From contig OZ219785.1 of assembly GCA_964291285.2 (NCBI GenBank), positions 992,001-1,056,000 of the forward strand: 64,000 nt of DNA. The letters are read 5' to 3'. The stretch is from Alphaproteobacteria bacterium (GTDB taxonomy: Bacteria > Pseudomonadota > Alphaproteobacteria > Bin95). Numbering within the stretch: the first letter of the stretch is position 1; the number at the start of each line of letters is the position of its first letter. This document shows, one piece after another, positions 393 to 11,907 of the stretch. The translations under genes and the position numbers were made by a program. Below the pieces are notes generated by a model. It searched no databases, was not told where the DNA came from, and was given only the letters and a program-made list of their open reading frames with translations.

Positions 393-446
393 TTGACATG
401 CACTAGGAATTTGACCACATACGGAAAATCGGAACATTCAAAGAAC
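393..446 (+). promoter_or_regulatory. Putative sigma70 promoter (-35 TTGACA at 393-398) with a LexA/SOS-type box GAAC-ATTCAAA-GAAC at 432-446
   Basis: Exact match to the alphaproteobacterial LexA consensus GAAC-N7-GAAC, 13 nt before the ATG at 460, in an AT-rich divergent intergenic region. Confidence 0.7.
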
Positions 447-459
447 CAAGGGGGGATTC

Positions 460-828
460 ATGCCTGTTCCCGATTTTTCGCGGAGCACCCGCGACGAAAG
501 ACCGTTCAGGAACGCCGAAGAGGCGTGGTTCTGGTTCATGTCCTGGCGCCTCGTGGTCGAGGATGGCGGCGTGCCGGGCCTTGAAGGCCGGGGCCGGCCC
601 TGCACACCGCTCGACATGCTGGCCTGCCTGCGCCGGTTGGTAAAGCCCGGTGTGCTCACCCGGCGGCACCTGCAGGTGCTGACCGGGTTCGGCCGCCGCC
701 TCGAAGCCCCGGCGCACGGGCCGCTGGCCCGGCTCTGGGAGGAGGGCATGGCGCGGCTGGAGGACCTGTTGCGCGCCAAGGGGATCGTTGCCGGCAGAGG
801 CCCGGGACGCCCGGGGATCGCGGCATGA
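460..828 (+). CDS. Hypothetical protein at the head of the phage-like cluster (possible regulator)
   Basis: 122-aa ORF with PFRNAEEAWFWF...RPCTPLD...LWEEGMARLEDLLRAKGIV. G-rich RBS upstream; ATGA overlap with the next gene. Confidence 0.7.
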   Translation: MPVPDFSRSTRDERPFRNAEEAWFWFMSWRLVVEDGGVPGLEGRGRPCTPLDMLACLRRLVKPGVLTRRHLQVLTGFGRRLEAPAHGPLARLWEEGMARLEDLLRAKGIVAGRGPGRPGIAA

Positions 829-1217
829 CGGGCGGTTCCGGGGATGGAGGCGGTTTCGGCGGACCGGCGCTTGCGGTGTTTTCCGGCAAGGCTGACCTCG
901 GCTGGCTCCGGCTGCTCCGGCCGGGATTCCGCCACTGCTTCGTCGCGCTGGAGGAAGCCGGCCGCTGGATCACGGTCGATCCGCTGGCCGGCTATACCGA
1001 CGTCGCGGTGCAGCCCGTGCCGGCGGCTTTCGACCTTGCCGGGTTCTACCGCGAGCGGGGCTTCACCGTGGTCGAGACACGGCGACGGCGGCGCTTCCGG
1101 CCCGCGCCGCTCCTGCCCGCCACCTGCGTCGAAGTGGCCAAGCGGGTGCTCGGCATCGCCTCCTGGCGGGTGCTCACGCCGGGCCAGTTACACGATTTTC
1201 TCCTAAAATATGGGTAA
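825..1217 (+). CDS. Hypothetical protein, possible permuted papain-like (His...Cys) peptidase/amidase
   Basis: 130 aa with GFRHCFVA and TCVEVAKRVLG motifs, His preceding Cys. Translationally coupled to 460-828. Confidence 0.6.
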   Translation: MTGGSGDGGGFGGPALAVFSGKADLGWLRLLRPGFRHCFVALEEAGRWITVDPLAGYTDVAVQPVPAAFDLAGFYRERGFTVVETRRRRRFRPAPLLPATCVEVAKRVLGIASWRVLTPGQLHDFLLKYG

Positions 1218-1233
1218 TGTTTCTCTTATATAC

Positions 1234-1261
1234 TTGACAAATGAAAAACATGGGGTAGTAT
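1234..1261 (+). promoter_or_regulatory. Putative sigma70 promoter for the portal gene
   Basis: TTGACA (1234-1239), 16-nt spacer, TAGTAT (1256-1261) in an AT-rich patch. RBS GAGGGA before ATG 1287. Confidence 0.5.
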
Positions 1262-1286
1262 GCAGGTGAACATGAGGGAAACACAC

Positions 1287-2819
1287 ATGATTGCCGAAAC
1301 ACCGGATCCGGAAGCGCTGCTGGCGGGATACCGCCGCGGCGAGGCCCGGCGGCGTCCCTGGGAGGCGCTCTGGCGCGACTGCGCGACCCATGCCCTGCCT
1401 TACGGCGCGGACGGGGCGGTCAATGGCGATGGCGGCGCCGCCAGGCGCATCTATGACGCAACGGCCGCCGATGCCGCGGAGCAGCTTGCCGCCAGCCTGC
1501 TCGCCGAACTCACCCCGCCCTTCGAGCGCTGGGTCGGCTTCGAGCCGGGGATCGGGGCCGGTCCCGAGGCCGCCGATGCACTGGAAGCCGCCGCCGGCAC
1601 CGTGCAGGGCCATCTCGACCGCTCCGCCTTCGCAGTCGAGATGCACCAGGCGCTGCTGGACCTCGTGGTGCTCGGCACGGGCTGCCTGCTGTTCGAGGAG
1701 AGCGCGGTCGGCGCGGCCTCGGCCTTCCGGTTCACCGCCGTGCCGCTCCGCGAGGCGGTGCTGGAAGAGGGGCCGGAAGGGCGGCTCGACCGGGTGTGGC
1801 GTCGGCGCGAGTTCGGCCCCGCCGCGCTCCGCGCCCGCTTTCCCCGCGCGCCCGTCCCGAGCGGCGAGGGGCCCTTCGGCGTCGTCGAGCGCGTCGCGCC
1901 GGAGCCCAGCGGCGGCGCCGACGCCGCCAATTCGACGAATCGCCGCGTTCCGCGCGGCGGCGGCGCTGACGCCGCCAATTCGACGAATCGCCGCGTTCCG
2001 CGCGGCGGCGGCTACCGTTACCTCGCCGTGCTGGAAGGCGGCGGCGGGCAGGCGGCGCAGTTGCTGGCCGAGGGCCGCTTCGCGGTCTCGCCCTTCATCT
2101 GCTTCCGCTGGCTGAAGGCGCCGGGCGAGGTCTATGGGCGCTCGCCGGTGATGAAGGCGCTGCCCGACATCAAGACCGCCGACAAGGTGGTGGAGCTCGT
2201 CCTGAAAAACGCCTCGATCGCCGCGACCGGCATCTGGCAGGCGGACGATGACGGCGTGCTCGACCCGACGGCGGTGGAGCTGGTGCCGGGCGCGGTCATG
2301 CCGAAGGCGGTGGGCTCGGCGGGGCTGACGCCGCTCGCCGCGCCGGGGCGCTTCGACGTGTCGCAGATCGTGCTGGAGGACCTACGCAAGCGCATCCGCC
2401 ACGCGCTGCTCGCCGACCGGCTGGCCGAGCCCGCGAGCCCGGCCATGACCGCGACCGAGGTGCTGGAGCGCGCGGCGGAGACGGCGAGGCTGCTGGGCGC
2501 AACCTACGGGCGGCTGGAGGCCGAACTGCTGACGCCGCTCATCGGGCGCGCGCTCGCCATACTCGCCCGGCGCGGCGAGGTGCCGGCCTTTGCGCTGGAC
2601 GGGCGGGACGCGGGGCTCCGGCTGCGCTCGCCGCTGGCGCAGGCGGCCGGGCGGCGCGAAGCCGGGGCGGCGCTCACCTGGCTCGGCGCGGTGGCGGGGC
2701 TCGGGCCCGAGGCGCTGGCCGCCGTCGATACCGGCCGCGCCGCGCGCTGGCTCGGCGCCCGCCTCGGCGTGCCGCCCGCCCTGCTGGAGCCGCCGGACCT
2801 GCTGCCCGGCGCGGCCTGA
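1287..2819 (+). CDS. Portal (head-tail connector) protein, podovirus T7 gp8/BPP-1-like
   Basis: Motifs IYDATAADAAEQLAASL, PFICFRWLKAPGEVYGRSPVMKALPDIK and MTATEVLERAAE...LGATYGRL..ELLTPLI. Confidence 0.92.
   Translation: MIAETPDPEALLAGYRRGEARRRPWEALWRDCATHALPYGADGAVNGDGGAARRIYDATAADAAEQLAASLLAELTPPFERWVGFEPGIGAGPEAADALEAAAGTVQGHLDRSAFAVEMHQALLDLVVLGTGCLLFEESAVGAASAFRFTAVPLREAVLEEGPEGRLDRVWRRREFGPAALRARFPRAPVPSGEGPFGVVERVAPEPSGGADAANSTNRRVPRGGGADAANSTNRRVPRGGGYRYLAVLEGGGGQAAQLLAEGRFAVSPFICFRWLKAPGEVYGRSPVMKALPDIKTADKVVELVLKNASIAATGIWQADDDGVLDPTAVELVPGAVMPKAVGSAGLTPLAAPGRFDVSQIVLEDLRKRIRHALLADRLAEPASPAMTATEVLERAAETARLLGATYGRLEAELLTPLIGRALAILARRGEVPAFALDGRDAGLRLRSPLAQAAGRREAGAALTWLGAVAGLGPEALAAVDTGRAARWLGARLGVPPALLEPPDLLPGAA
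1911..2012. repeat. Two tandem 48-bp copies of a REP-like element inserted in frame in the portal gene
   Basis: Encodes (ADAANSTNRRVPRGGG)x2. Shares TCGCCGCGTTCCGCGCGGCGGCGGCGC with the intergenic repeat at 13744-13904. Confidence 0.85.
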
Positions 2820-2847
2820 CGAGGCGAACCGCACCGCAGTTTTCAGG

Positions 2848-2882
2848 CGGGCGGCTCCTCCGGGGGCCGCCCGTTTTCTTTC
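2848..2882 (+). terminator. Intrinsic terminator between the portal and scaffold genes
   Basis: Stem CGGGCGGCTCC / GGGGCCGCCCG with a TCCG loop, followed by TTTTCTTT. Confidence 0.7.
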
Positions 2883-2917
2883 GACCCCTGACGACAATCC
2901 AAAGGAGACACGACCCC

Positions 2918-3598
2918 GTGGAAACGGACATCGAAACCGAAATGGAGACGCCGGTTCGCCCGGACGGCCTGCCGGACGAGTTCTGGGACGCCGACGCCGG
3001 CCAGGTGCGCCTCGGCGAGCTGGTCGGCGCTTACGGGGCCCTGGCCTCGGCAGAACGCCCGCCCGCGAGCCCGGAGGACTACCGGCTCGAGCTGGACGGG
3101 CTGATCGGCGGGCCTGACGCCGAGGCCAACCGGCGGATGCACGAGGCCGGCTTCACCAACGCCCAGGTCCAGCTCGTCTACGACATGGCGTCCTCGCTGC
3201 TGCTGCCGCTGGCGGGCGAGGTCGCGGGCGAACTGGAGCGGGCCGAGCGCGAGGCCCGGCTCGCGGACCGCTATGGCGGCGAGGACGGCTGGCGGCGCGC
3301 GAAAGGCCAGATGGAGGCCTGGGCGGCGGCCAACCTGCCGGCAGGCGTCGGCGCGGCGCTCACCGGCTCGGTCGAGGGCGCGGCGGCGCTGGAGCGGCTG
3401 ATGGATGCGGGCGAGCCCGGCCTCGGCGGCAGCGGCGGCGAACGGCCGGGCGGGGCGGTGACGCTCGACGGCCTGCGCCGCCTCCAGGGCGACCCGCGCT
3501 ACTGGCGCGACCGCGACCCCGCCCTCGTCCGGCAGGTGATGGAGGGCTACCGGCGCCTCTATCCGGGCGAAACCGAAACCGATCCCGGCGAGTCCTGA
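2918..3598 (+). CDS. Capsid assembly (scaffolding) protein
   Basis: Acidic protein with RPDGLPDEFWD, PPASPEDYRL and DPRYWRDRDPALV motifs, located between portal and capsid. RBS AAGGAG upstream. Confidence 0.75.
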   Translation: METDIETEMETPVRPDGLPDEFWDADAGQVRLGELVGAYGALASAERPPASPEDYRLELDGLIGGPDAEANRRMHEAGFTNAQVQLVYDMASSLLLPLAGEVAGELERAEREARLADRYGGEDGWRRAKGQMEAWAAANLPAGVGAALTGSVEGAAALERLMDAGEPGLGGSGGERPGGAVTLDGLRRLQGDPRYWRDRDPALVRQVMEGYRRLYPGETETDPGES

Positions 3599-3624
3599 CG
3601 CGGGCTCGACACACCAACCCTGAA

Positions 3625-5320
3625 CCTAAATCCGGCAGTTGACGAGCTTGATCGCTGTCTCGGGGTAGTGTGAACGGTCGGATTTGGGCGTGGATTTCAG
3701 CACGTGGTCGCGGCCCTGGGTGGCGGCAGCCAGGGTTGACGCCCCGGTTCGCGGCCATGGAGGTATTTCCTGAGCGCCTCGGCGAGGATGCGGCGCCAGC
3801 GATCCCCGGCGCTCAACTGCTCCGCAGTTTGCGTCAGCGACCGGAAGAAGCCGGCGATCCGGCGCAGCGCCGCCATCACCGTCTTGCGACGCCCGTGATG
3901 GGAGGTCACCGTCAGCCGGGTCTGGCCGGCGTGGTGGGTCTGGCGGGCAACCCCGTGCAGGAGCAGCGGCCGGCTGGTGATCGCCTCGCGGTGATGGTCG
4001 GGGTCGGCGAGGCGCACGAACAGGCTCCACCAGTTGTAGATGAGCGCGATCAGCCGGGCCATGTGCCGGCAGCGCGTCAGGTCGCGCGTGGTGAAGCCGC
4101 CCCAACCCCACTGGTTCTTCAACTCGTCGAAGCCGTTCTCCGCGTCCGCCCGGTCGCGGTAGAGCTGGGCCAGCGAGCGTATCTCCAGGTCCAGCGAGGT
4201 CGCCAGCACCGCGAACTCCCACACCCCGGTGCCGGGCTGCGCCTCGGTCCAGAACAGCTCGCCCTGGGCCTTGTCGCCACGCGTCAGCGCCAGCGTCGCA
4301 GGAAGCCGCCGACGCAGCACCACAACCCGGCGCGTCCGGCTCCAGCCCTGCAGACGCAGATCGGCCCCGATCCCCGACCAGCCCTGGCCTGCATCCTCCC
4401 AGCCGTCCCGCACCATCAGCCGCTCGGCAAGCCGGCGCGCCCCCTTCGTCAGGCGCAGCTTGAACAAATAGTCCAGACCCGCAGCCTCGCACGACGCCAT
4501 GTTGGCCTCGCTGCCCCAGTCCTTATCGCCCCGCACCAGACGCGGCCAGCGATCCCGACCGAGACGGTCGAGCAACGCCCACAAGGACGGCGCCGCGCGC
4601 CTCGAATGGTGATGGTTGCCCGGCGCCACCTCGACATCCAGAACAAGCCGCGTGCCCGCCATCAGGAACGCATGGCAGGCATGCGAGGGGCGGCCCGGCT
4701 TCTTCGGGTTGTAGCTCACAACCGCCCCCTCCTGACGACCGTAAAGCGCCTTGATCGTCGTGTCGCAGTCCAGAACCCACGGCTCCCTCAGCAGCGGACG
4801 GACCACCTCGTCCAGATGGCCCTGAAGCCACGATGTGCCGACATCCGCACCGATCCGCTCCAGACCGCGCCGCACCGAATCCTCGCTCGCAACCTTGTCC
4901 ATACCCAGCAGCGCAGGGTTCACCCCGTCGCCGCGCAGCGACGTGATGTGCGCATAGCGAGACTGCCCCGCCAGAACCGACAGAAGAACCGTCCCCAGGA
5001 CATCCCGCTTCGACGGCGCGTTCGGGCTCGTGTAGTGCAGCGGGCAGTCCGCAACCAAAGCGTCAAAGCGACCGCTTACCTTCAGGTATTCCGAGAAAAA
5101 CGCCAGATGCCCCAGCGGCGTCACCGCCGCATCAGGGTCCCATTCCACATGAACCGCGCCGCCGAAGGTGTCCACCTTCACCGACGCTCGGGCGACATCC
5201 CGCACAGCGCCAGGATAATCACCCAAAGGGTGAGCCTCTTCGGCCCCTGAAAAGCCGCTCATACCCGCAGACTACAAGGGATTCGGCAAGGCCAAGCCAT
5301 CCTCAACTGCCGGATTTAGG
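3625..5320 (-). mobile_element. IS1380-family insertion sequence
   Basis: Terminal inverted repeats CCTAAATCCGGCAGTTGA / TCAACTGCCGGATTTAGG. 5-bp target duplication CTGAA at 3620-3624 and 5321-5325. Confidence 0.92.
3697..5262 (-). CDS. IS1380-family DDE transposase
   Basis: LDCDTT...YGRQEGAVVSYNP, LVRGDKDWG and YRDRADAENGFDELK motifs. Confidence 0.9.
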   Translation of the reverse strand: MSGFSGAEEAHPLGDYPGAVRDVARASVKVDTFGGAVHVEWDPDAAVTPLGHLAFFSEYLKVSGRFDALVADCPLHYTSPNAPSKRDVLGTVLLSVLAGQSRYAHITSLRGDGVNPALLGMDKVASEDSVRRGLERIGADVGTSWLQGHLDEVVRPLLREPWVLDCDTTIKALYGRQEGAVVSYNPKKPGRPSHACHAFLMAGTRLVLDVEVAPGNHHHSRRAAPSLWALLDRLGRDRWPRLVRGDKDWGSEANMASCEAAGLDYLFKLRLTKGARRLAERLMVRDGWEDAGQGWSGIGADLRLQGWSRTRRVVVLRRRLPATLALTRGDKAQGELFWTEAQPGTGVWEFAVLATSLDLEIRSLAQLYRDRADAENGFDELKNQWGWGGFTTRDLTRCRHMARLIALIYNWWSLFVRLADPDHHREAITSRPLLLHGVARQTHHAGQTRLTVTSHHGRRKTVMAALRRIAGFFRSLTQTAEQLSAGDRWRRILAEALRKYLHGREPGRQPWLPPPRAATTC

Positions 5321-5348
5321 CTGAAACCACGACAGGAGGACAGGCAAC

Positions 5349-6167
5349 ATGCCCGTCGATCTTTCCCCTTCCTTCATCAAGGCGTTCGAAGGCGAAGTCC
5401 ACAACGCCTATCAGCGCCAGGGCTCCAAGCTCCGCGACACGGTGCGCACGCGCCGCGGCGTGATGGGCTCCAGCGTGACCTTCCGCAAGGTCGGGCGCGG
5501 CGCCGCCGCCACCAAGGCCCGGCACGGCCAGATCCCGGTGATGAACGTCGATCACAGCGCGGTCGAGTGCAATCTCCGCGACTACTATGCCGGCGAGTGG
5601 GTGGACCGGCTCGACGACCTCAAGATCGGCGGCGGCGAGCGCGACACGGTCGCCAAGGCGGGCGCCTATGCGCTCGGCCGCAAGACCGACCAGCTCATCG
5701 CCGCCGCGCTCGACGGCTCGACCAACCATGCCGGCGCCGACACGGACGGGCTGACCAAGGCCAAGGTGCTCACCGCCTTCGAGATGCTCGGCCAGGCCGA
5801 CGTGCCGGACGACGGCGAACGCACCGCCGTCATCGGCTGGAAGCAGTGGTCGGACCTCATGAAGATCGAGGAGTTCGCCAATGCCGACTATGTGGGCGCG
5901 GACGACCTGCCCTGGCGGGGCACCCAGGCCAAGCGCTGGCTCGGCACCCTCTGGCTGCCGCATTCGGGGCTGACGCTCAAGGACTCGGTCCGGCTCTGCC
6001 ACTGGTACCACAAGAGCGCGGTCGGCCACGCCGCCGGCGCGGAAGTCACCACCGACATCACCTGGCACGGCGACCGCGCCGCCTGGTTCGTCGCCAACTG
6101 GATGAGCCAGGGCGCGGCGCTGATCGACGCCGAGGGCGTCGTGACCATGCGCTGCCTCGAAACCTGA
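5349..6167 (+). CDS. Major capsid protein (short, 272 aa)
   Basis: FIKAFEGEVHNAYQRQGSKLRDTVR, DYYAGEWVDRLDDLK and GAYALGRKTDQLI motifs. Strong RBS AGGAGG. Confidence 0.88.
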   Translation: MPVDLSPSFIKAFEGEVHNAYQRQGSKLRDTVRTRRGVMGSSVTFRKVGRGAAATKARHGQIPVMNVDHSAVECNLRDYYAGEWVDRLDDLKIGGGERDTVAKAGAYALGRKTDQLIAAALDGSTNHAGADTDGLTKAKVLTAFEMLGQADVPDDGERTAVIGWKQWSDLMKIEEFANADYVGADDLPWRGTQAKRWLGTLWLPHSGLTLKDSVRLCHWYHKSAVGHAAGAEVTTDITWHGDRAAWFVANWMSQGAALIDAEGVVTMRCLET

Positions 6168-6195
6168 CCGGAACGAAAAGGAGACAACAGAAGCA

Positions 6196-6555
6196 ATGGC
6201 GTCCAAATCCGCGAACCTCTCCGTCCTGGCCTATGCCAACGGCTTCACCTTCTGGCACTACAAGTCCGCCGAGGACGCCGACGGCGACATGGTGGCGGCC
6301 GGCTATTTCGACGCGGCCGCCGACCTGCTCCGCCCCGGCGACATGCTGGCGCTGAACGGCGCGGGCGACAGCGCGGCGCTGGTCCGCGTGTCGTCCAGCC
6401 GCAATGGCAGCGTCGGCGTCGGCTTCACCACCGACTGGGAGACCCAGGCGGCGGTCGCCGACGCGGCCGGCGGGGCGACCGTCGATGCCCAGGCGCGCGC
6501 GGCCGTCAACGCGGTCATCCGCGCGCTCGAACGGGTCGGCGTCCTCGCCGCCTGA
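6196..6555 (+). CDS. Putative head decoration or small virion protein
   Basis: LSVLAYANGFTFWHY...GYFDAAADLLRPGD domain plus a C-terminal VDAQARAAVNAVIRALERVGVLA helix. Directly follows the capsid gene. Confidence 0.55.
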   Translation: MASKSANLSVLAYANGFTFWHYKSAEDADGDMVAAGYFDAAADLLRPGDMLALNGAGDSAALVRVSSSRNGSVGVGFTTDWETQAAVADAAGGATVDAQARAAVNAVIRALERVGVLAA

Positions 6556-6633
6556 CGGACCGGCGGCCGGTGGACGGCATGTCCGCCGGCCGCCACCCGC
6601 CATTCCCCTTCCCCTGCCGAAAGGAGGCCGCCC

Positions 6634-7194
6634 ATGGCGTTGACCGCCGTCCAGATTGCGAGCCAGGCGCTCGTCCGGCTCGGTGCGCTGCCGATTTCCG
6701 ATTTCGCGGAGCCGACCCTCGAGGCGCGCACCGCCGCCGCGCTCTATCCCACGCTCCGCGATACGCTGCTTGCGGGCCATGCCTGGCGTTTCGCCACGGC
6801 CGAGGCGGCGCTTTCACCTGCGGAAGAGCCGCCGCTCGACGGCTTCGCGCATGCCTTCCGGCTGCCGGCCGGTTTCCTGAATGCGCTGGCGGTGGAGGAC
6901 GGGCGCGAGACCGGCTGGCGCATCGCCGGCGGAAGGCTTCACGCGCACACGGCCCGGCTCCGGCTCGCCTATATCTTCCGCGCCGGCGAGGCGGAGTTCC
7001 CGCCCTGGTTCGCGGATGCGCTCGCCGCCCATCTCGCCGCCGCCTTCTGCCTGCCGGTGACGGAGAACACGTCCCGCGCGGAGGCGCTCCAGCGGCTGGC
7101 GGACGCAGCCCTCCGCCGCGCCCGGCGCACGGACGCGCTCCAGGACCCGGCGCGCGCGCCGCTCCGCTTCCCGCTGATCGAGGCCAGGGCATGA
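6634..7194 (+). CDS. Tail tubular protein A / head-tail adaptor (T7 gp11-like)
   Basis: IASQALVRLGALPISDF...LRDTLLAGHAWRFAT...AFRLPAGFL; size and position fit. Confidence 0.8.
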   Translation: MALTAVQIASQALVRLGALPISDFAEPTLEARTAAALYPTLRDTLLAGHAWRFATAEAALSPAEEPPLDGFAHAFRLPAGFLNALAVEDGRETGWRIAGGRLHAHTARLRLAYIFRAGEAEFPPWFADALAAHLAAAFCLPVTENTSRAEALQRLADAALRRARRTDALQDPARAPLRFPLIEARA

Positions 7195-9068
7195 CCCGGA
7201 TCAACACCCTCAAGACCAATTTCAGCGCGGGCGAGCTCACCCCGCGCCTCGCCGGCCGGCCCGACCTCGCGGCCTATCGCGACGGCGCGCGCCGGCTGCG
7301 CAATGTCACCGTCCACCCGACGGGCGGGCTGTCGCGGCGGCCGGGGCTCGCCTTCGTCGAGGCCGCGCCCGGCCCCGGCCGGCTGGCCGCCTTCGAATTC
7401 AACACGGAGGAAAGCTACCTGCTGCTGTTCACCGACCGGGCGCTGCGCATCTACCGGGCGGGCCGGCGGGTCGCGCTCGTCGCCGCGCCCTGGCGGGAAG
7501 CGGACCTGGCCGGGCTCAACTGGACGCAGACCGCCGACACGCTGCTGGTCGTCCATCCCGACTATCCGCCGCAGACCCTGACGCGCCGGGGGCAGGACGA
7601 CTGGCGGATCGCGCCCTGGGAATGGGCCGAGCGGGCCGGACGGTCGATGCGGCCCTACCACCGCTATGCCGCGCCGTCGGTGACGCTGGCGGCCTCGGCG
7701 GCTTCGGGCCGCGTCCGGCTCACCGCCTCGGCCGGCGTCTTCGCGCCGGAGCATGCGGGCCAGCCCTTCCGGATCGGCAGGGACGAGGTCCGGATCCACC
7801 GGTTCGTCTCCGCCACCCAGGCCGAGGCGGACGTCACGGGCGCGCTTGCAGGCGGCACGGCGGCGACCGCGAACTGGCGGGAGCCCGCCTTTTCGGCCCG
7901 GCGCGGCTGGCCGGTCTCGGTCGTGTTCCACCAGGACAGGCTGGTGATCGGCGGGTCGCGCTCGCTGCCGGACCGGCTCTGGCTCTCGCGCTCGGGCGCC
8001 TTTTTCGACTTCGACCCCGGCGAGGGGCTCGATGACGAGGCCATCGCCTTCCCGCTGCTTTCGGACCAGGCGAACGCGGTGCGCGCGGTCGTCTCCGGGC
8101 GGCATCTGCAGGTCTTCACCTCGGGCGCGGAATGGACCGTCTCCGGCGACCCGCTGACCCCCGCCTCTATCCAGCTCCGCCGCCAGACGCGCATCGGCTC
8201 GCCCGCCGACCGCGCCGTCCGGCCGGTGGATGTCGAGGGAGCGGTGATGTTCCTCGCCCGCAACGGGCGCGAGCTGCGCGAATTCCTGTTCGCGGACGCC
8301 GAGCTTGCCTACCGCGCGCAGGACCTGGCGCTGCTTGCCGGCCACCTGTTCGCCGCGCCGGTCGAGGCCGTCTGGGACGAGGCGGCCCGGCGGCTGCTGG
8401 TCGTCATGGGCGACGGGTCCATCGCCGCGCTCACGCTCTGGCGGGCCGAGGGCGTCCATGCCTGGACGCGGCTGGAGACCGAGGGAGCCTTCCGGTCGGC
8501 GGCGGTGGCGGGCGGCGCGGCCTGGGCGCTGGTCGAGCGCGAGGGGCGGTATTCGGTCGAGCGCTTCGACGAGGCGATCGGCGTGGACGCCGCGGTCTCC
8601 GGAACGGCCGCCCGCCCGACCCGCTCCTGGGGCGGCCTCGCCCATCTCGAAGGCCGGGAGGTCGCCGCCGTCGCGGGCGGCAGGCCGCTCTCCGGGCTCC
8701 GGGTGACGGGCGGACGCATCCTGCTCGACGCCCCGGCCCGGAACGTGCAGGCGGGGCTGCCCTTCGCGCACGAGATCGAGCCGCTCGCCCCCGGCGTCCA
8801 GCTTGCGCGGGGCGCGATGCAGGGCGTGGCCCACCGGGCGGTGCGGCTGGTGCTGCGCCTTGCCGGCGCGCGGGCGCTGCGCTGCGACACGGGCTTCGGC
8901 TTCCGCCGGGCCGCGCTCGGCGCGGATGCCTTCACCGGCGACATCTCGCTCGGCGCGGGCGGCTGGCGGCGCGACGGCGCGGCCCCGCTCTGGCGCATCG
9001 AGGACGAGACCCCGCTTCCCTTCCACCTCCTTTCCGCTGCAACCGAACTCAAGGTGACCGACATATGA
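7191..9068 (+). CDS. Tail tubular protein B / nozzle (T7 gp12-like)
   Basis: TNFSAGELTPRL..R.DL, GWPVSVVFHQDRLVIGGS and LQVFTSGAEW motifs. True start is ATG 7191 (ATGA overlap). Confidence 0.85.
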   Translation: MTRINTLKTNFSAGELTPRLAGRPDLAAYRDGARRLRNVTVHPTGGLSRRPGLAFVEAAPGPGRLAAFEFNTEESYLLLFTDRALRIYRAGRRVALVAAPWREADLAGLNWTQTADTLLVVHPDYPPQTLTRRGQDDWRIAPWEWAERAGRSMRPYHRYAAPSVTLAASAASGRVRLTASAGVFAPEHAGQPFRIGRDEVRIHRFVSATQAEADVTGALAGGTAATANWREPAFSARRGWPVSVVFHQDRLVIGGSRSLPDRLWLSRSGAFFDFDPGEGLDDEAIAFPLLSDQANAVRAVVSGRHLQVFTSGAEWTVSGDPLTPASIQLRRQTRIGSPADRAVRPVDVEGAVMFLARNGRELREFLFADAELAYRAQDLALLAGHLFAAPVEAVWDEAARRLLVVMGDGSIAALTLWRAEGVHAWTRLETEGAFRSAAVAGGAAWALVEREGRYSVERFDEAIGVDAAVSGTAARPTRSWGGLAHLEGREVAAVAGGRPLSGLRVTGGRILLDAPARNVQAGLPFAHEIEPLAPGVQLARGAMQGVAHRAVRLVLRLAGARALRCDTGFGFRRAALGADAFTGDISLGAGGWRRDGAAPLWRIEDETPLPFHLLSAATELKVTDI

Positions 9069-9481
9069 GCGCACTCCTCCCCGTAGCCCTGGCGGCGGGC
9101 AACGCCCTGCTCGCCGAAACCTCCGCCGCCGAGGCGGCCTCCCGGCGCCGCGCCGCCGCGAACGCGCAGGCCGCCGATGTCCGCGCCGGCGCCGCCGAGC
9201 GCGAACGCCTGCGCCGCCGCCGGCTGAAGCAGGCGCTGGCCCGCGCCCGCGCCCGGTTCGGCGCGGCCGGCACCGGCTCCGCCGCCGGTTCGGCCGCCGC
9301 GCTGCTGGGCGGGCTTGCCGCCGAAAGCGAGCGGGAGGGCCGCCATGCGGGCGACGCCGCCTCGCGGCGCCTCGCCTCGCTCCGGGCCGACAGCACCCAT
9401 GCGGGCCGGCTCGAACGGCTGGGCCTCCTCAGCCGGACGGGCGGGCTGCTCGCGCTGCGCGGGCCGCGGCGAAACGGCTGA
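9065..9481 (+). CDS. Putative internal virion/ejection protein
   Basis: Ala/Arg-rich helical ORF (ARARARFGAAGTGSAAGSAAALL) coupled to the tail B stop, in the position of podoviral core proteins. Confidence 0.5.
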   Translation: MSALLPVALAAGNALLAETSAAEAASRRRAAANAQAADVRAGAAERERLRRRRLKQALARARARFGAAGTGSAAGSAAALLGGLAAESEREGRHAGDAASRRLASLRADSTHAGRLERLGLLSRTGGLLALRGPRRNG

Positions 9482-9492
9482 CGGGCGGTCCC

Positions 9493-9672
9493 GTGGACAC
9501 GCTCGCGCTCCGGGTCTTCGCCGAATACGGGCCGCTCGCCCTTGGCTGGGGCCTTGCCGGCTGGCTGCTGCACCGGGATTCGCGCGGCCGCCAGCAGGTG
9601 CTCGACGTCATCGTCGCCAACACGCGCGCGCTCGCCGTGCTGGCGGAGAAGATCGACGCGCTCCGGCGGTAG
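9493..9672 (+). CDS. Small membrane protein, candidate single-TM holin or lysis accessory
   Basis: Own translation, below the ORF-track cutoff: VDTLALRVFAEYGPLALGWGLAGWLLHRDSRGRQQVLDVIVANTRALAVLAEKIDALRR. One hydrophobic segment plus a coiled coil. Confidence 0.5.
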   Translation: MDTLALRVFAEYGPLALGWGLAGWLLHRDSRGRQQVLDVIVANTRALAVLAEKIDALRR

Positions 9673-9731
9673 CGGGCGCCCGGCCACCGACCGCTGCCAC
9701 TATCCACTACCCACTATTCAAAGGAGGTTCG

Positions 9732-11198
9732 ATGAACCCCACCTTCACCTCTTTCCTCGACGCCTGGAACCGCAGCCAGACTCTGGCAACGCCCGCGCTT
9801 CACCGGAACATCGCCGGCTGGTTCGACGAGCGGATCGCCAAGGGCACGCGGCGCATGCTGCTGCTGGCCTTCCGGGGCTCGGGCAAATCGACCCTGCTCG
9901 GCCTGCTGTCCGCCTGGCTGCTCAAATGCAACCCGGACCGGCGCATCCTGGTGCTGGCGGCGGAGTCGGCGCTGGCATCCAAGACGGTGCGCACCGTGCG
10001 CCGCATCCTGGAGCGCCATCCCGACACGGAAGCGCTCCGCCCCGACAAGCCCGAGGAATGGGCGGCCGACCGGCTGACCGTGCCGCGCCGCCTCGTCTCG
10101 CGCGACCCCTCGCTGCTGGCGCGCGGCATCGGGGCCAACATTACCGGGGCGCATGCCGATGTCGTGATCTGCGACGATGTCGAAGTGCCGAACACCTGCG
10201 GCACGCCGGCGAAGCGGGCCGACCTGCGCGCGCGCCTCTCCGAGGCCGACTATGTGCTGAGCCCCGGCGGCTTCCAGATCTACAGCGGCACGCCGCACAG
10301 CTACTACTCGATCTACACCAAGGACCCGCGGCCGGAGGAAGGCGACAAGCGCCCGTTCCTGCACGATTTCCGCCGGTTGACGAAGAAACTCACGGCGAGA
10401 GCTTGGCCGGAGCGCTTCCCGCCGAAGGTCATCAAGGAAATCCGCAAGCGCGCGGGCCCGGCGCGCTTCGCCAGCCAGATGCTGCTCGAACCCATGCAGG
10501 CGGTGGACGGCCGGCTGAACGCGGAGTGGCTGCGCCGCTACGAGGAGCCGCTCGACTACAGCGAGGTGAACGGCAGGCCGGTGCTGCGGCTGGCCGGCCG
10601 GCGGCTGCTCTCCGCCTCGGCCTGGCTGGACCCCTCCTTCGGCAGGCGGGACAAGGGCGATGCCTGCGTGCTGGCCGCGGTGTTCACCGACGAGGACGGC
10701 CGGCGCCTGCTGCACCGGGTGGCCTACCTCTACTACGACCCGAAGAACGACCGCGACGGCGCGGCGAAGCAGTTGTGCCGGCAGGCGGCCGCCCATGCGC
10801 GCAAGCTGGCGCTGCCGGCCGTCCATGTGGAGTCCAACGGCGTCGGGGCGTTCATCCCGAAAATCCTGCAGCGGGAACTCGCGCGCGAGGGCCACGGCGC
10901 CACGGTCATCGGCATCCCCAACAGCCGCCCGAAGCACGAGCGCATCCTGGAGGCGTTCGACGCGCCGCTCGCCGCCAATGCGCTCTGGGCCCATGCCAGC
11001 GTATTCAAGTCGCCCTTCCTGCGAGAACTGAGGGAATGGCGGCCGGAAAACCGCAGCGGCCCGGACGACGGACTGGACGCGGCCGCCTGCGCGCTGCTGA
11101 TGGAGCCGGTCCGCATCCGCCCGGTCGGCCGCGCGCCGCGCCTGGAGTGGCGGAAGCACGCAAGCCCCGGTCGCGCCCGCACCGATTTCGGCATCTGA
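9732..11198 (+). CDS. terL: Large terminase subunit (T7 gp19-like)
   Basis: Walker A LLAFRGSGKST, Walker B VVICDDVE, GTPH, nuclease motifs LDPS and DDGLDA. RBS AAGGAGG before ATG 9732. Confidence 0.92.
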   Translation: MNPTFTSFLDAWNRSQTLATPALHRNIAGWFDERIAKGTRRMLLLAFRGSGKSTLLGLLSAWLLKCNPDRRILVLAAESALASKTVRTVRRILERHPDTEALRPDKPEEWAADRLTVPRRLVSRDPSLLARGIGANITGAHADVVICDDVEVPNTCGTPAKRADLRARLSEADYVLSPGGFQIYSGTPHSYYSIYTKDPRPEEGDKRPFLHDFRRLTKKLTARAWPERFPPKVIKEIRKRAGPARFASQMLLEPMQAVDGRLNAEWLRRYEEPLDYSEVNGRPVLRLAGRRLLSASAWLDPSFGRRDKGDACVLAAVFTDEDGRRLLHRVAYLYYDPKNDRDGAAKQLCRQAAAHARKLALPAVHVESNGVGAFIPKILQRELAREGHGATVIGIPNSRPKHERILEAFDAPLAANALWAHASVFKSPFLRELREWRPENRSGPDDGLDAAACALLMEPVRIRPVGRAPRLEWRKHASPGRARTDFGI

Positions 11199-11206
11199 GG
11201 CGGGGG

Positions 11207-11285
11207 CCGCCCTTCGATACGCCCGCCGGAGGCGGGCTACTCAGGGTGAGGGAAGAGCCTGCCCTGGGCCTGTCGAAGGGGACGG
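11207..11285. repeat. REP/MITE-like palindromic element
   Basis: Outer inverted repeat CCCTTCGA...TCGAAGGG with an inner hairpin GCCCGCC-GGA-GGCGGGC. Confidence 0.6.
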
Positions 11286-11337
11286 CCTCCATGACAGGCT
11301 CGACCCATCCACCAACCACCATCCACGGGAGGAACCC

Positions 11338-11907
11338 ATGATTCCTGCACTTCTCGCCCAGATCGGCCTGCCGCTCATCGCGCGCCTCGCGGGCGCCGGG
11401 CTGGAGGCGCTCGACAACCCGGCCGCCGACACCGCCGCCAGGGCGCTCCGCGAGGTGGACGGCGTGCTGCGGACCGGCGGCGTCGCCCCGGAGGCGCTCG
11501 ACGCCGCGAACCGGCGCATCGAGGCCGAGGCGCGCTCGCGCGAGGCCGAGACCGCCTGGCGCGAGGTCAACGCCACCATGCGCGCCGAGACCCGCGCCGG
11601 GGACGCCTATGTGCGCCGCTGGCGGCCGACCTTCGGCTATGCCGTGACGGCGGCGTGGGCCATGCAGATGGGCGCCATCGCCTGGGCGGTGGTGGCGCAC
11701 CCGACCGACGCGCCGGCGATCCTGGCGGCGGCCGCCTCGCTCAGCGCCATGTGGGGCGTGGCGCTCGCCGTGCTCGGGGTCGCGGTGCATGAACGCTCGC
11801 GCGACAAGGCGCTCGCCGCAGGCCAGCCCGCCTCCGGCCTGGCGTCGCTGGCCGCCGCGCTGCTGGACCGCAGGAAGGCGGAACGGCCCGCCGCGCCCGC
11901 CGGGTAG
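11338..11907 (+). CDS. 3TM holin family protein
   Basis: ATMRAE...DAYVRRWRPTFGY followed by hydrophobic helices and VLGVAVHERSRDK. Confidence 0.8.
   Translation: MIPALLAQIGLPLIARLAGAGLEALDNPAADTAARALREVDGVLRTGGVAPEALDAANRRIEAEARSREAETAWREVNATMRAETRAGDAYVRRWRPTFGYAVTAAWAMQMGAIAWAVVAHPTDAPAILAAAASLSAMWGVALAVLGVAVHERSRDKALAAGQPASGLASLAAALLDRRKAERPAAPAG

Follow-up and report, generated by a model that had tools for sequence, protein, structure and literature searches.

A T7-like, podovirus-type particle locus, probably domesticated and under SOS control, in chromosomes of Alphaproteobacteria

To our knowledge, few gene transfer agents (GTAs) of independent origin have been recognised, and those of Alphaproteobacteria are solely of the siphovirus or Bartonella type. 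RcGTA is controlled by the CtrA/GafA circuit and depends on ComEC and DprA in the recipient cell, and an Ala/Gly bias of the encoded proteins has been described for clusters of this type. FpGTA of Faecalibacterium prausnitzii, a GTA-like element of probable podovirus-like morphology reported in 2026 and called the first of that morphology, is described as having a structural operon with homologues of short-tailed-phage proteins and a second operon for fibre and lysis, the evidence comprising particles, DNA of about 9 kb and proteomics (PMC12946183). Here, we analyzed a window of 64,000 nucleotides (G000:C1:992001-1056000; positions below are those of the window unless a genome position is given) from an alphaproteobacterial genome of 6.1 Mb, 68% G+C and five contigs (hereafter, G000). 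Its left end carries a cluster of virion and packaging genes that, judging from the sequence, is probably a domesticated, SOS-controlled, GTA-like particle system of podovirus type. In the full texts searched, supplements of the cited papers aside, no conserved T7-like or podovirus-type cluster or GTA of Alphaproteobacteria is described.

The first-pass annotation of this DNA had claimed a co-oriented set of virion and packaging genes, and searches of the open reading frames (ORFs) of the window against Pfam, PHROG and PDB (E values in brackets) bore this out, with family matches for the portal, the capsid, tail tubular proteins A and B, the large terminase (TerL) and a holin-like protein. Thirteen plus-strand genes and one insertion sequence (IS) are bounded by a minus-strand repressor gene on one side and by host aldolase/dehydrogenase genes on the other. 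The order is a divergent S24 repressor, an SOS box, two small genes, a T7-type portal, scaffold, capsid, a small protein, adaptor, nozzle, a small internal protein, a 59-aa protein, TerL and GTA_holin_3TM, and all 13 frames are open in G000. The portal is of the T7 gp8 type (1260-2819, start possibly 1272 or 1287; PF12236, 6.5e-117), with 9efk, 8ck0 and T7 as relatives in the PDB, and its gene has a 96-bp in-frame tandem duplication at 1919-2014 that is specific to G000, the contigs of relatives skipping these positions. The scaffold-like protein (2918-3598) had no family match in Pfam or PHROG and was assigned by its place between portal and capsid, where it is conserved in relatives. The major capsid protein has 272 aa (5349-6167; PF19821, 1.3e-80; PDB 9eg4, 2e-33), and the G+C content at third codon positions of its gene is 0.94. 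Tail tubular protein A, the adaptor of T7 gp11 type (6634-7194; phrog_394, 1.3e-41), is followed by tail tubular protein B, the nozzle of T7 gp12 type (7191-9068; phrog_376, 2.3e-131; PDB 8ck1 "Tail Nozzle", 4.9e-55), and ATGA overlaps join tube A to tube B and tube B to the next gene.

TerL starts at the ATG at 9732 and ends at 11198 (phrog_38, 9.4e-70), in the frame of the ORF 9315-11198. Its Walker A (GSGKST), Walker B (ICDDVE), GTPHS and DDGLDA motifs (coupling motif and nuclease acidic residues) are intact in 12 sequences. The frame 9542-11341, which had first been taken for TerL, matches no family and was rejected. The last gene of the cluster encodes a holin-like membrane protein (11338-11907; PF11351 GTA_holin_3TM, 1.8e-11; phrog_3427 holin, 1.1e-3). 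Together, the gp8-type portal, gp11-type adaptor, gp12-type nozzle and T7-supergroup TerL form a T7-like virion module; as in a GTA, these phage structural and packaging genes lie in a chromosome and lack replication, integration and excision genes of their own. The cluster was also correctly called GC-rich: without the IS it has 73.6% G+C, 5.4 points above the mean of 68.1 +/- 2.4% in 9.8-kb windows of the genome, and only 1.5% of 3040 such windows reach 73.6% or more. Several of its products are 30-40% Ala+Gly.

To trace the inheritance of the cluster, we compared its capsid with alanyl-tRNA synthetase (AlaRS) of the same genomes. The capsid had one match per genome, with 92-99% identity in 12 of 16 other congeneric species and a fragment of 53 residues in a thirteenth. 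Its identity to G000 tracks that of AlaRS, at 92-99% versus 89-95% within the genus, 68-71% versus 71-73% in the sister genus (g2; 68-70% in four of four genomes) and another family (f10; 71%), and 56% versus 61% in a third family (f3). Five structural proteins, concatenated for 13 taxa (G008, with truncated genes, left out), gave a tree that agrees with the AlaRS tree in its deep topology. Class-I lysyl-tRNA synthetase (LysRS) lies just past the repressor in 13 of 80 named loci, and the LysRS and cluster trees of these 13 have all well-supported clades in common, the placement of L029 being supported in the LysRS tree only. The patchy distribution and phage-like phylogeny that the first-pass annotation had named as grounds for doubt were thus not found, since the cluster is single-copy, its capsid tracks AlaRS and the structural tree agrees at deep nodes.

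The cluster is widespread. With the capsid profile at E <= 1e-70, it was counted in 12 of 16 genomes of g1, nine of nine of g2 and none of eight of g3, and in an even sample of Alphaproteobacteria it was present in 69 of 401 genomes (55 of 294 genera), single-copy in all but one genome. At least 582 species-representative genomes have capsid relatives, the listed carriers including Azospirillum, Skermanella, Niveispirillum, Telmatospirillum, Elioraea, Roseospira, Magnetospirillum, Magnetovibrio, Ferrovibrio, Tagaea, Caenispirillum, Oleisolibacter and metagenome-assembled genomes of Thalassospiraceae and Geminicoccaceae. From repressor to TerL, nine complete congeneric loci and other families have the same gene order. 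Small genomes carry it as well, with ten loci from genomes of 0.9-1.6 Mb and one from a genome of 1.9 Mb (31-55% G+C); among the ten, the capsid is present in ten, tube A in nine, tube B and TerL in eight each and the portal in five. One small-genome locus shows only capsid, orf119 and lysin, and some are rearranged or have partial TerL matches. In three loci of 0.9-Mb genomes (L132, L133 and L136), the portal follows TerL and the TerL match is limited to the ATPase part (query residues 83-278). In many Azospirillum loci, the genes from capsid to TerL have no portal, scaffold or repressor within 10 kb.

Relaxed selection had likewise been named as a sign against domestication, and purifying selection was found instead. 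The ratios of nonsynonymous to synonymous substitution rates (dN/dS; pairwise Nei-Gojobori within the genus, medians over 21-66 pairs) were 0.13-0.32 in 11 of 12 genes at dS of 0.2-0.46. Individually, they were 0.13 for orf130, 0.14 for the capsid, 0.19 for both portal and scaffold, 0.20 for both the repressor and the holin-like gene, 0.23 for tube A, 0.25 for both tube B and the small internal protein, 0.26 for orf119 and 0.32 for orf122, and two neighbouring host genes had 0.08 and 0.21. Vertical inheritance with the host and purifying selection, weaker in TerL, are both features expected of a GTA. Gene set, inheritance and selection together support the earlier proposal of a domesticated short-tailed, T7-like particle system.

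No integrase or replication gene was found among the 10 ORFs scanned in the 20 kb left of the window, a check that had been set beforehand. This region encodes host functions instead (DAO/FAD oxidoreductase, AlaRS, flavin reductase, acyl-CoA ligase, acyltransferase, copper amine oxidase and enoyl-CoA hydratase), so that host genes lie on both sides, which is not the setting of a temperate prophage. The cluster of the sister genus is flanked by a TPP-binding oxidoreductase (PF02775/PF01558), a luciferase-like monooxygenase and dihydroorotate dehydrogenase (DHODH). Across 110 flanking ORFs of 32 loci, class-I LysRS (9) and DHODH (6) were the commonest families, and no integrase was among the flank families matched at least twice (25 of 55 families listed; att repeats not searched). 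Nor does the locus resemble phage satellites such as phage-inducible chromosomal islands (PICI) or their capsid-forming kind (cf-PICI), having no integrase or replication initiator of its own, a single copy and co-divergence with the adjacent LysRS. IMG/VR lists at least 580 contigs with this capsid as viral, many of them as proviruses of about 18 kb. Integrases were located in three of five larger IMG/VR "proviruses", and in the two examined they belong to intruding elements, not to the cluster. Such integrase elements were seen inside the portal gene (L222/L156, IMG/VR provirus G433) and after a truncated nozzle gene (L183, G435). Among congeners, homology stops at the stop codon of the repressor gene (window position -263, G000:C1 about 991700), and the synteny breakpoint is exactly at the repressor border; the 4.5 kb past the holin-like gene are common to six of ten genomes.

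The left end of the cluster suggests control by the host SOS response. The repressor is an S24 (CI/LexA-like) protein of 220 aa (minus strand, 1-399, G000:C1:991737-992399; PF00717 Peptidase_S24, 8.2e-22), with its C-terminal 88 codons (263 bases) extending past the left end of the window. It is the sole S24 protein of the genome apart from the canonical LexA, and in relatives it is likewise divergent from and adjacent to orf122. The 60-nt divergent regulatory region between the two genes (400-459) contains the box GAACATTCAAAGAAC at 432-446, of the form GAAC-N7-GAAC, which we take to be the alphaproteobacterial LexA box. An exact GAAC-N7-GAAC occurs in the same intergenic region of 18 of 41 loci from other genomes, versus 0.042 per kb over all loci. 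The whole genome has 111 exact copies (0.018 per kb), including one about 65 nt upstream of its own lexA. This putative box would place the cluster under host regulation, as in a GTA. A promoter scan returned three sites versus 0.3 expected, one of them a sigma-70-like TTGACA-16-TAGTAT (1234-1261, plus strand; 10/12 matches) ahead of the portal, and a pair of the TTGAC..TAGGAT type is kept at this place in congeners and other families. Four loci (L012 at 5836-6285, L013, L016 and L138) have an extra small ORF of ~65-130 aa, which follows the conserved promoter, precedes the portal and is absent from the genus of G000. No CtrA-type box was seen by eye in two short regions read. ComEC and DprA are encoded in the genome, and lexA with its own SOS box adjoins comEC on the opposite strand (G000:C3:1242688-1244776).

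The first-pass annotation had called the gene set minimal, which is true of this genus but is a derived condition, as fuller clusters exist elsewhere. In the sister genus and other families, the cluster spans 15-18 kb versus 9.7 kb in G000. Between the small internal protein and TerL, the fuller clusters have a fibre gene and two or three small genes of unknown function, and a cell-wall hydrolase gene follows TerL. The fibre, of about 830-860 aa, combines a GDSL-esterase-like part with an N-terminal domain of T7-fibre type (phrog_1640, 2.4e-31; PF03906 weak). Two of the small genes ahead of TerL (p101 and p109) match PHROG families of unknown function and are barely similar between lineages; that they act as the small terminase (TerS) is a guess. 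No gp15/gp16-type proteins were found in any cluster form examined. Because other lineages carry the fibre, the extra small genes and the endolysin in the cluster, the form in the genus of G000, which is sponge-associated and has a 59-aa gene in the place of the fibre block, is a secondary reduction. Fibre-less forms like that of G000 also occur in some small genomes.

The whole genome of G000 gave no tblastn match to the fibre, the three small genes or the two lysins of its relatives, and PF03906 was not found in it by a search that had no working control. Of the T7-type ejection and fibre proteins (gp14-gp16 and gp17), only a small Ala/Arg-rich protein of 138 aa is left as a possible counterpart (9065-9481, plus strand; phrog_418, weak, 1.1e-4), and its gene is kept in congeners. 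The internal-virion-like protein claimed earlier thus has a weak match and a much smaller size; a 449-aa reading of 8132-9481 was rejected, its match being confined to the last third. The conserved 59-aa gene (orf59, 9493-9672, plus strand) had been overlooked. Its product has one predicted membrane helix and 85-97% identity in nine of nine congeneric loci, other genera yielded no match, and we infer a lysis- or assembly-related protein.

The remaining small genes offer candidate functions of differing strength. In orf130 (825-1217, plus strand), His37, Cys38 and Cys101 are invariant in 42 sequences. Its AlphaFold2 (AF2) model (pLDDT, a confidence measure, 87.5) best matched, in a VIA search, the type VI effector TseH (6v98, Z 7.2, 110 aligned), YiiX (2if6, Z 6.7) and a Bacillus cysteine peptidase (3kw0, Z 6.0), all permuted papain/NlpC-P60-type hydrolases; Z values of 6.0-7.2 are lower than a level safe by itself, and Foldseek gave no match at E <= 0.001. 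With moderate support, the model and the invariant residues thus point to a cell-wall hydrolase. The conserved small protein orf122 (460-828, plus strand) has homologues at the same position in 34 of 80 loci (coverage >=70%) and a four-helix AF2 model (pLDDT 77.5), and is a candidate regulator. It had no Pfam or PHROG match, no Foldseek fold match and no PDB sequence match better than E 0.14, and its Atlas matches were to unnamed clusters only. The small conserved virion-module protein orf119 (6196-6555, plus strand; phrog_18004, 2e-9) has homologues after the capsid gene in most loci. It stands where a decoration-like protein had been proposed, and a decoration or head-fibre role is a weak lead, the Atlas scores (<=0.80) giving leads only.

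Within the structural operon of G000 lies an IS (3625-5320, minus strand) with inverted ends, a DDE transposase gene (3697-5262; PF13701/PF01609) and, at 3620-3624 and 5321-5325, the two copies of a 5-bp target duplication (CTGAA). It lies 21 bp past the scaffold stop and 24 bp ahead of the capsid ATG. By tblastn, the transposase maps to 43 places in the genome, of which 12 are full-length and 100% identical, no locus examined in relatives contains the IS, and in contigs of two public runs, ~95% identical to the window, position 3619 is followed immediately by 5321. These observations mark the insertion as recent and lineage-specific, and the IS is not part of the particle system. This DDE_Tnp_1_4 IS is strongly expanded in the genome, its copies pointing to a recent burst, and the public runs with G000-like DNA are mostly labelled sponge metagenomes. 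Being 24 bp upstream of the capsid start, it probably disturbs expression in G000; a sigma-70-like pair in its right end, GCGACA-16-GATAAT (9/12; 5192-5219), directed towards the capsid, is possibly an outward promoter from which the downstream genes could still be transcribed. At the same scaffold/capsid junction, loci L138, L156 and L071 have 3-5 kb of other genes.

In general, we think it fairly likely that the locus descends from a T7-like podovirus (of the RNA-polymerase-less, pelagiphage type), as a remnant that is fixed in the chromosome, inherited vertically and has kept only particle, packaging and lysis functions under host DNA-damage control. Upon DNA damage, active RecA would lead LexA and the neighbouring S24 repressor to cleave themselves, releasing expression of the orf122-orf130 unit and of the structural operon behind the promoter at 1234-1261. 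Proheads would be assembled from portal, scaffold and capsid, and TerL would fill them with little sequence specificity, as the genus has no recognisable small terminase, and mostly with host DNA, as the locus can neither replicate nor excise. The adaptor and nozzle would close the head, and lysis of a fraction of the cells would fall to the holin-like protein together with orf59 and orf130, the candidate cysteine hydrolase. Because gp15/gp16-type ejection proteins are missing, the DNA would reach the periplasm of the recipient only and enter through ComEC/DprA, as in RcGTA. The loss of the T7-type fibre in this genus would imply either another mode of adsorption or a benefit that lies elsewhere.

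Several observations weigh against this reading. The selection on TerL (dN/dS 0.50) is weaker than on the other genes, and its tree within the genus is at odds with the structural tree, placing G000 with G010, G016 and G011 and not with G007. TerL identity within the genus is 60-90% versus 92-99% for the capsid. Its gene has an uninterrupted single frame in every congener but two; the disagreement between trees suggests an exchange of TerL alleles among close species. The cluster is dispensable, no capsid having been found in three of 16 congeners (G001, G002 and G009), and it has decayed in others, with only a fragment in G004, a deletion from orf119 into TerL in G006, about 2.5 kb inserted in TerL in G016, and neither the repressor nor the two small genes in G008, where portal and nozzle are truncated. 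In G000 itself, the IS splits the operon. The 4.5 kb past the repressor are common to no pair of nine congeners, bar two alignments of 208 and 641 bases. The T7-type fibre (phrog_1640) was found in none of three genomes of the genus (G000, G007 and G012) by a search that finds it in G021 and G033, and tblastn of G000 gave no recognisable small terminase or classical endolysin. The capsid structure 9eg4, the closest solved relative, was deposited with seven chains, the number expected for a T=7 shell, and the genomes of related phages measure 31-34 kb; by this analogy, the head may be large enough for the cluster's own locus of 10-15 kb. Contigs of a ~93-95% identical relative in a metatranscriptome run (X23) cover repressor, portal, capsid, adaptor and nozzle but do not show transcription, their depth over the cluster being about that of the host flanks and DNA being possible in such libraries. 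Finally, we know of no particle, packaged DNA or transfer for any member of the family.

The conservation data also fit a particle that the host keeps for a purpose other than transfer, be it SOS-triggered altruistic lysis releasing DNA or cell contents, a killer particle, or a decoy that packages or blocks the DNA of T7-like phages. SOS control would suit such a role, and a fibre-less form that, in this genus and in some small genomes, is still under purifying selection is hard to square with adsorption to recipients. We consider it unlikely nonetheless, as the retention of TerL, portal and nozzle with intact motifs argues for DNA packaged in a closed particle, and the fibre with its esterase domain in most lineages implies cell binding. 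The signs of decay, namely the IS at the scaffold/capsid junction, the loss of fibre, endolysin and TerS-like genes in the genus, the loss or disruption of the cluster in seven of 16 congeners and the high dN/dS of TerL, would all fit a defective prophage remnant that has no present function, is not yet eroded and was inactivated by the IS in G000. This is rather improbable given the 13 open frames, the low dN/dS of the other genes at dS of 0.2-0.46, the retention of orthologues at all levels between genus and class, 0.9-Mb genomes included, and a capsid that evolves as slowly as AlaRS; the IS, with its 12 identical copies and its absence from ~95% identical relatives, is a recent event.

A mobile element, that is, a satellite or minimal temperate phage relying on a helper or on genes elsewhere for replication, excision and fibres, would explain why IMG/VR holds so many contigs with this capsid as viral or proviral, why many Azospirillum loci lack a nearby portal, scaffold and repressor, and why the left flank varies within the genus. 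Against this, the cluster is single-copy, carries no integrase itself, co-diverges with AlaRS and the adjacent LysRS, has LysRS and DHODH neighbours recurring in different families, and has no cultured phage whose capsid is more than 51% identical, so that we regard mobility as very improbable. Returning to the domesticated podovirus remnant, a further step can be proposed tentatively, as possible though short of probable: an ancient, independent domestication of a T7-like podovirus gave an SOS-triggered GTA without an ejectosome, which hands DNA to the competence machinery of the recipient and is spread over much of Alphaproteobacteria (about one sampled genus in five), covering Azospirillum, Elioraea, Magnetospirillum-type and Thalassospira-type lineages and tiny symbiont genomes.

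If true, a single-copy, T7-derived, SOS-wired particle locus that co-diverges with its hosts and persists in 0.9-Mb genomes would be a further and very widespread case of virus domestication, and its fibre-less form in the sponge-associated genus would show a particle serving its host without classical adsorption. This would bear on gene flow in Rhodospirillales-type bacteria and symbionts, on the minimal gene set of a DNA-delivering particle, and on automatic labelling, as IMG/VR lists such loci as proviruses. Cultured carriers that could serve as models are Azospirillum brasilense, A. soli, Elioraea thermophila, Caenispirillum salinarum, Roseospira goensis and Oleisolibacter albus. A link between the T7-like cluster and the particles of Azospirillum is only a lead, because the original report is said to have described siphovirus-like particles. 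As two genome papers put it, these mitomycin-induced particles contain ~10 kb of DNA and their genes were never found (PMC2818188, PMC3899980).

The nearest cultured relatives, RNA-polymerase-less T7-like podoviruses, share the gene order of the virion module. The capsid is 45% identical to that of Pelagibacter phage EXVC031P Hodr (34 kb) and 32% identical to those of Vibrio phages of 31.7 kb, and the order of portal, scaffold, capsid, small gene, tube A and tube B is the same. The genomes of those podoviruses are complete, at 31-34 kb, and include early and replication regions as well as large proteins past tube B (783 and 1247 aa in Hodr), whereas only ~10 kb of late genes are present here. 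In Hodr, the gene taken for TerL on size and position only lies ahead of the portal, while TerL stands at the end here. Among the 15 best matches listed, TerL is at most 31% identical to that of cultured phages.

With RcGTA and the Caulobacter GTA, the cluster shares a gene set confined to structure and packaging and fixed in alphaproteobacterial chromosomes. As in RcGTA, it is vertically inherited under purifying selection, has a G+C content higher than the genome mean and a PF11351 holin, and has no ejection machinery, so that ComEC/DprA of the recipient would plausibly be needed. Its ancestry is unrelated to that of RcGTA (Rhodogtaviriformidae), as its portal is of family PF12236, its capsid of PF19821, and adaptor and nozzle stand where RcGTA has a long tail; no prohead protease lies in the cluster. 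No RcGTA-type marker PF13547 (GTA_TIM, g15-type) was found in the genome, and PF05065 gave only a weak fragment on another contig. The predicted regulators are an S24 repressor and an SOS box. The "new class" of GTA proposed in the first-pass annotation is tempered by the podovirus-like morphology described for FpGTA (PMC12946183). By that description, FpGTA is set apart as a system of Firmicutes with particles shown; the present cluster is alphaproteobacterial and T7-derived. As far as sequence can go, the comparison supports a GTA-like domesticated virus of different ancestry, of which the copy in G000 is reduced and interrupted by an IS.

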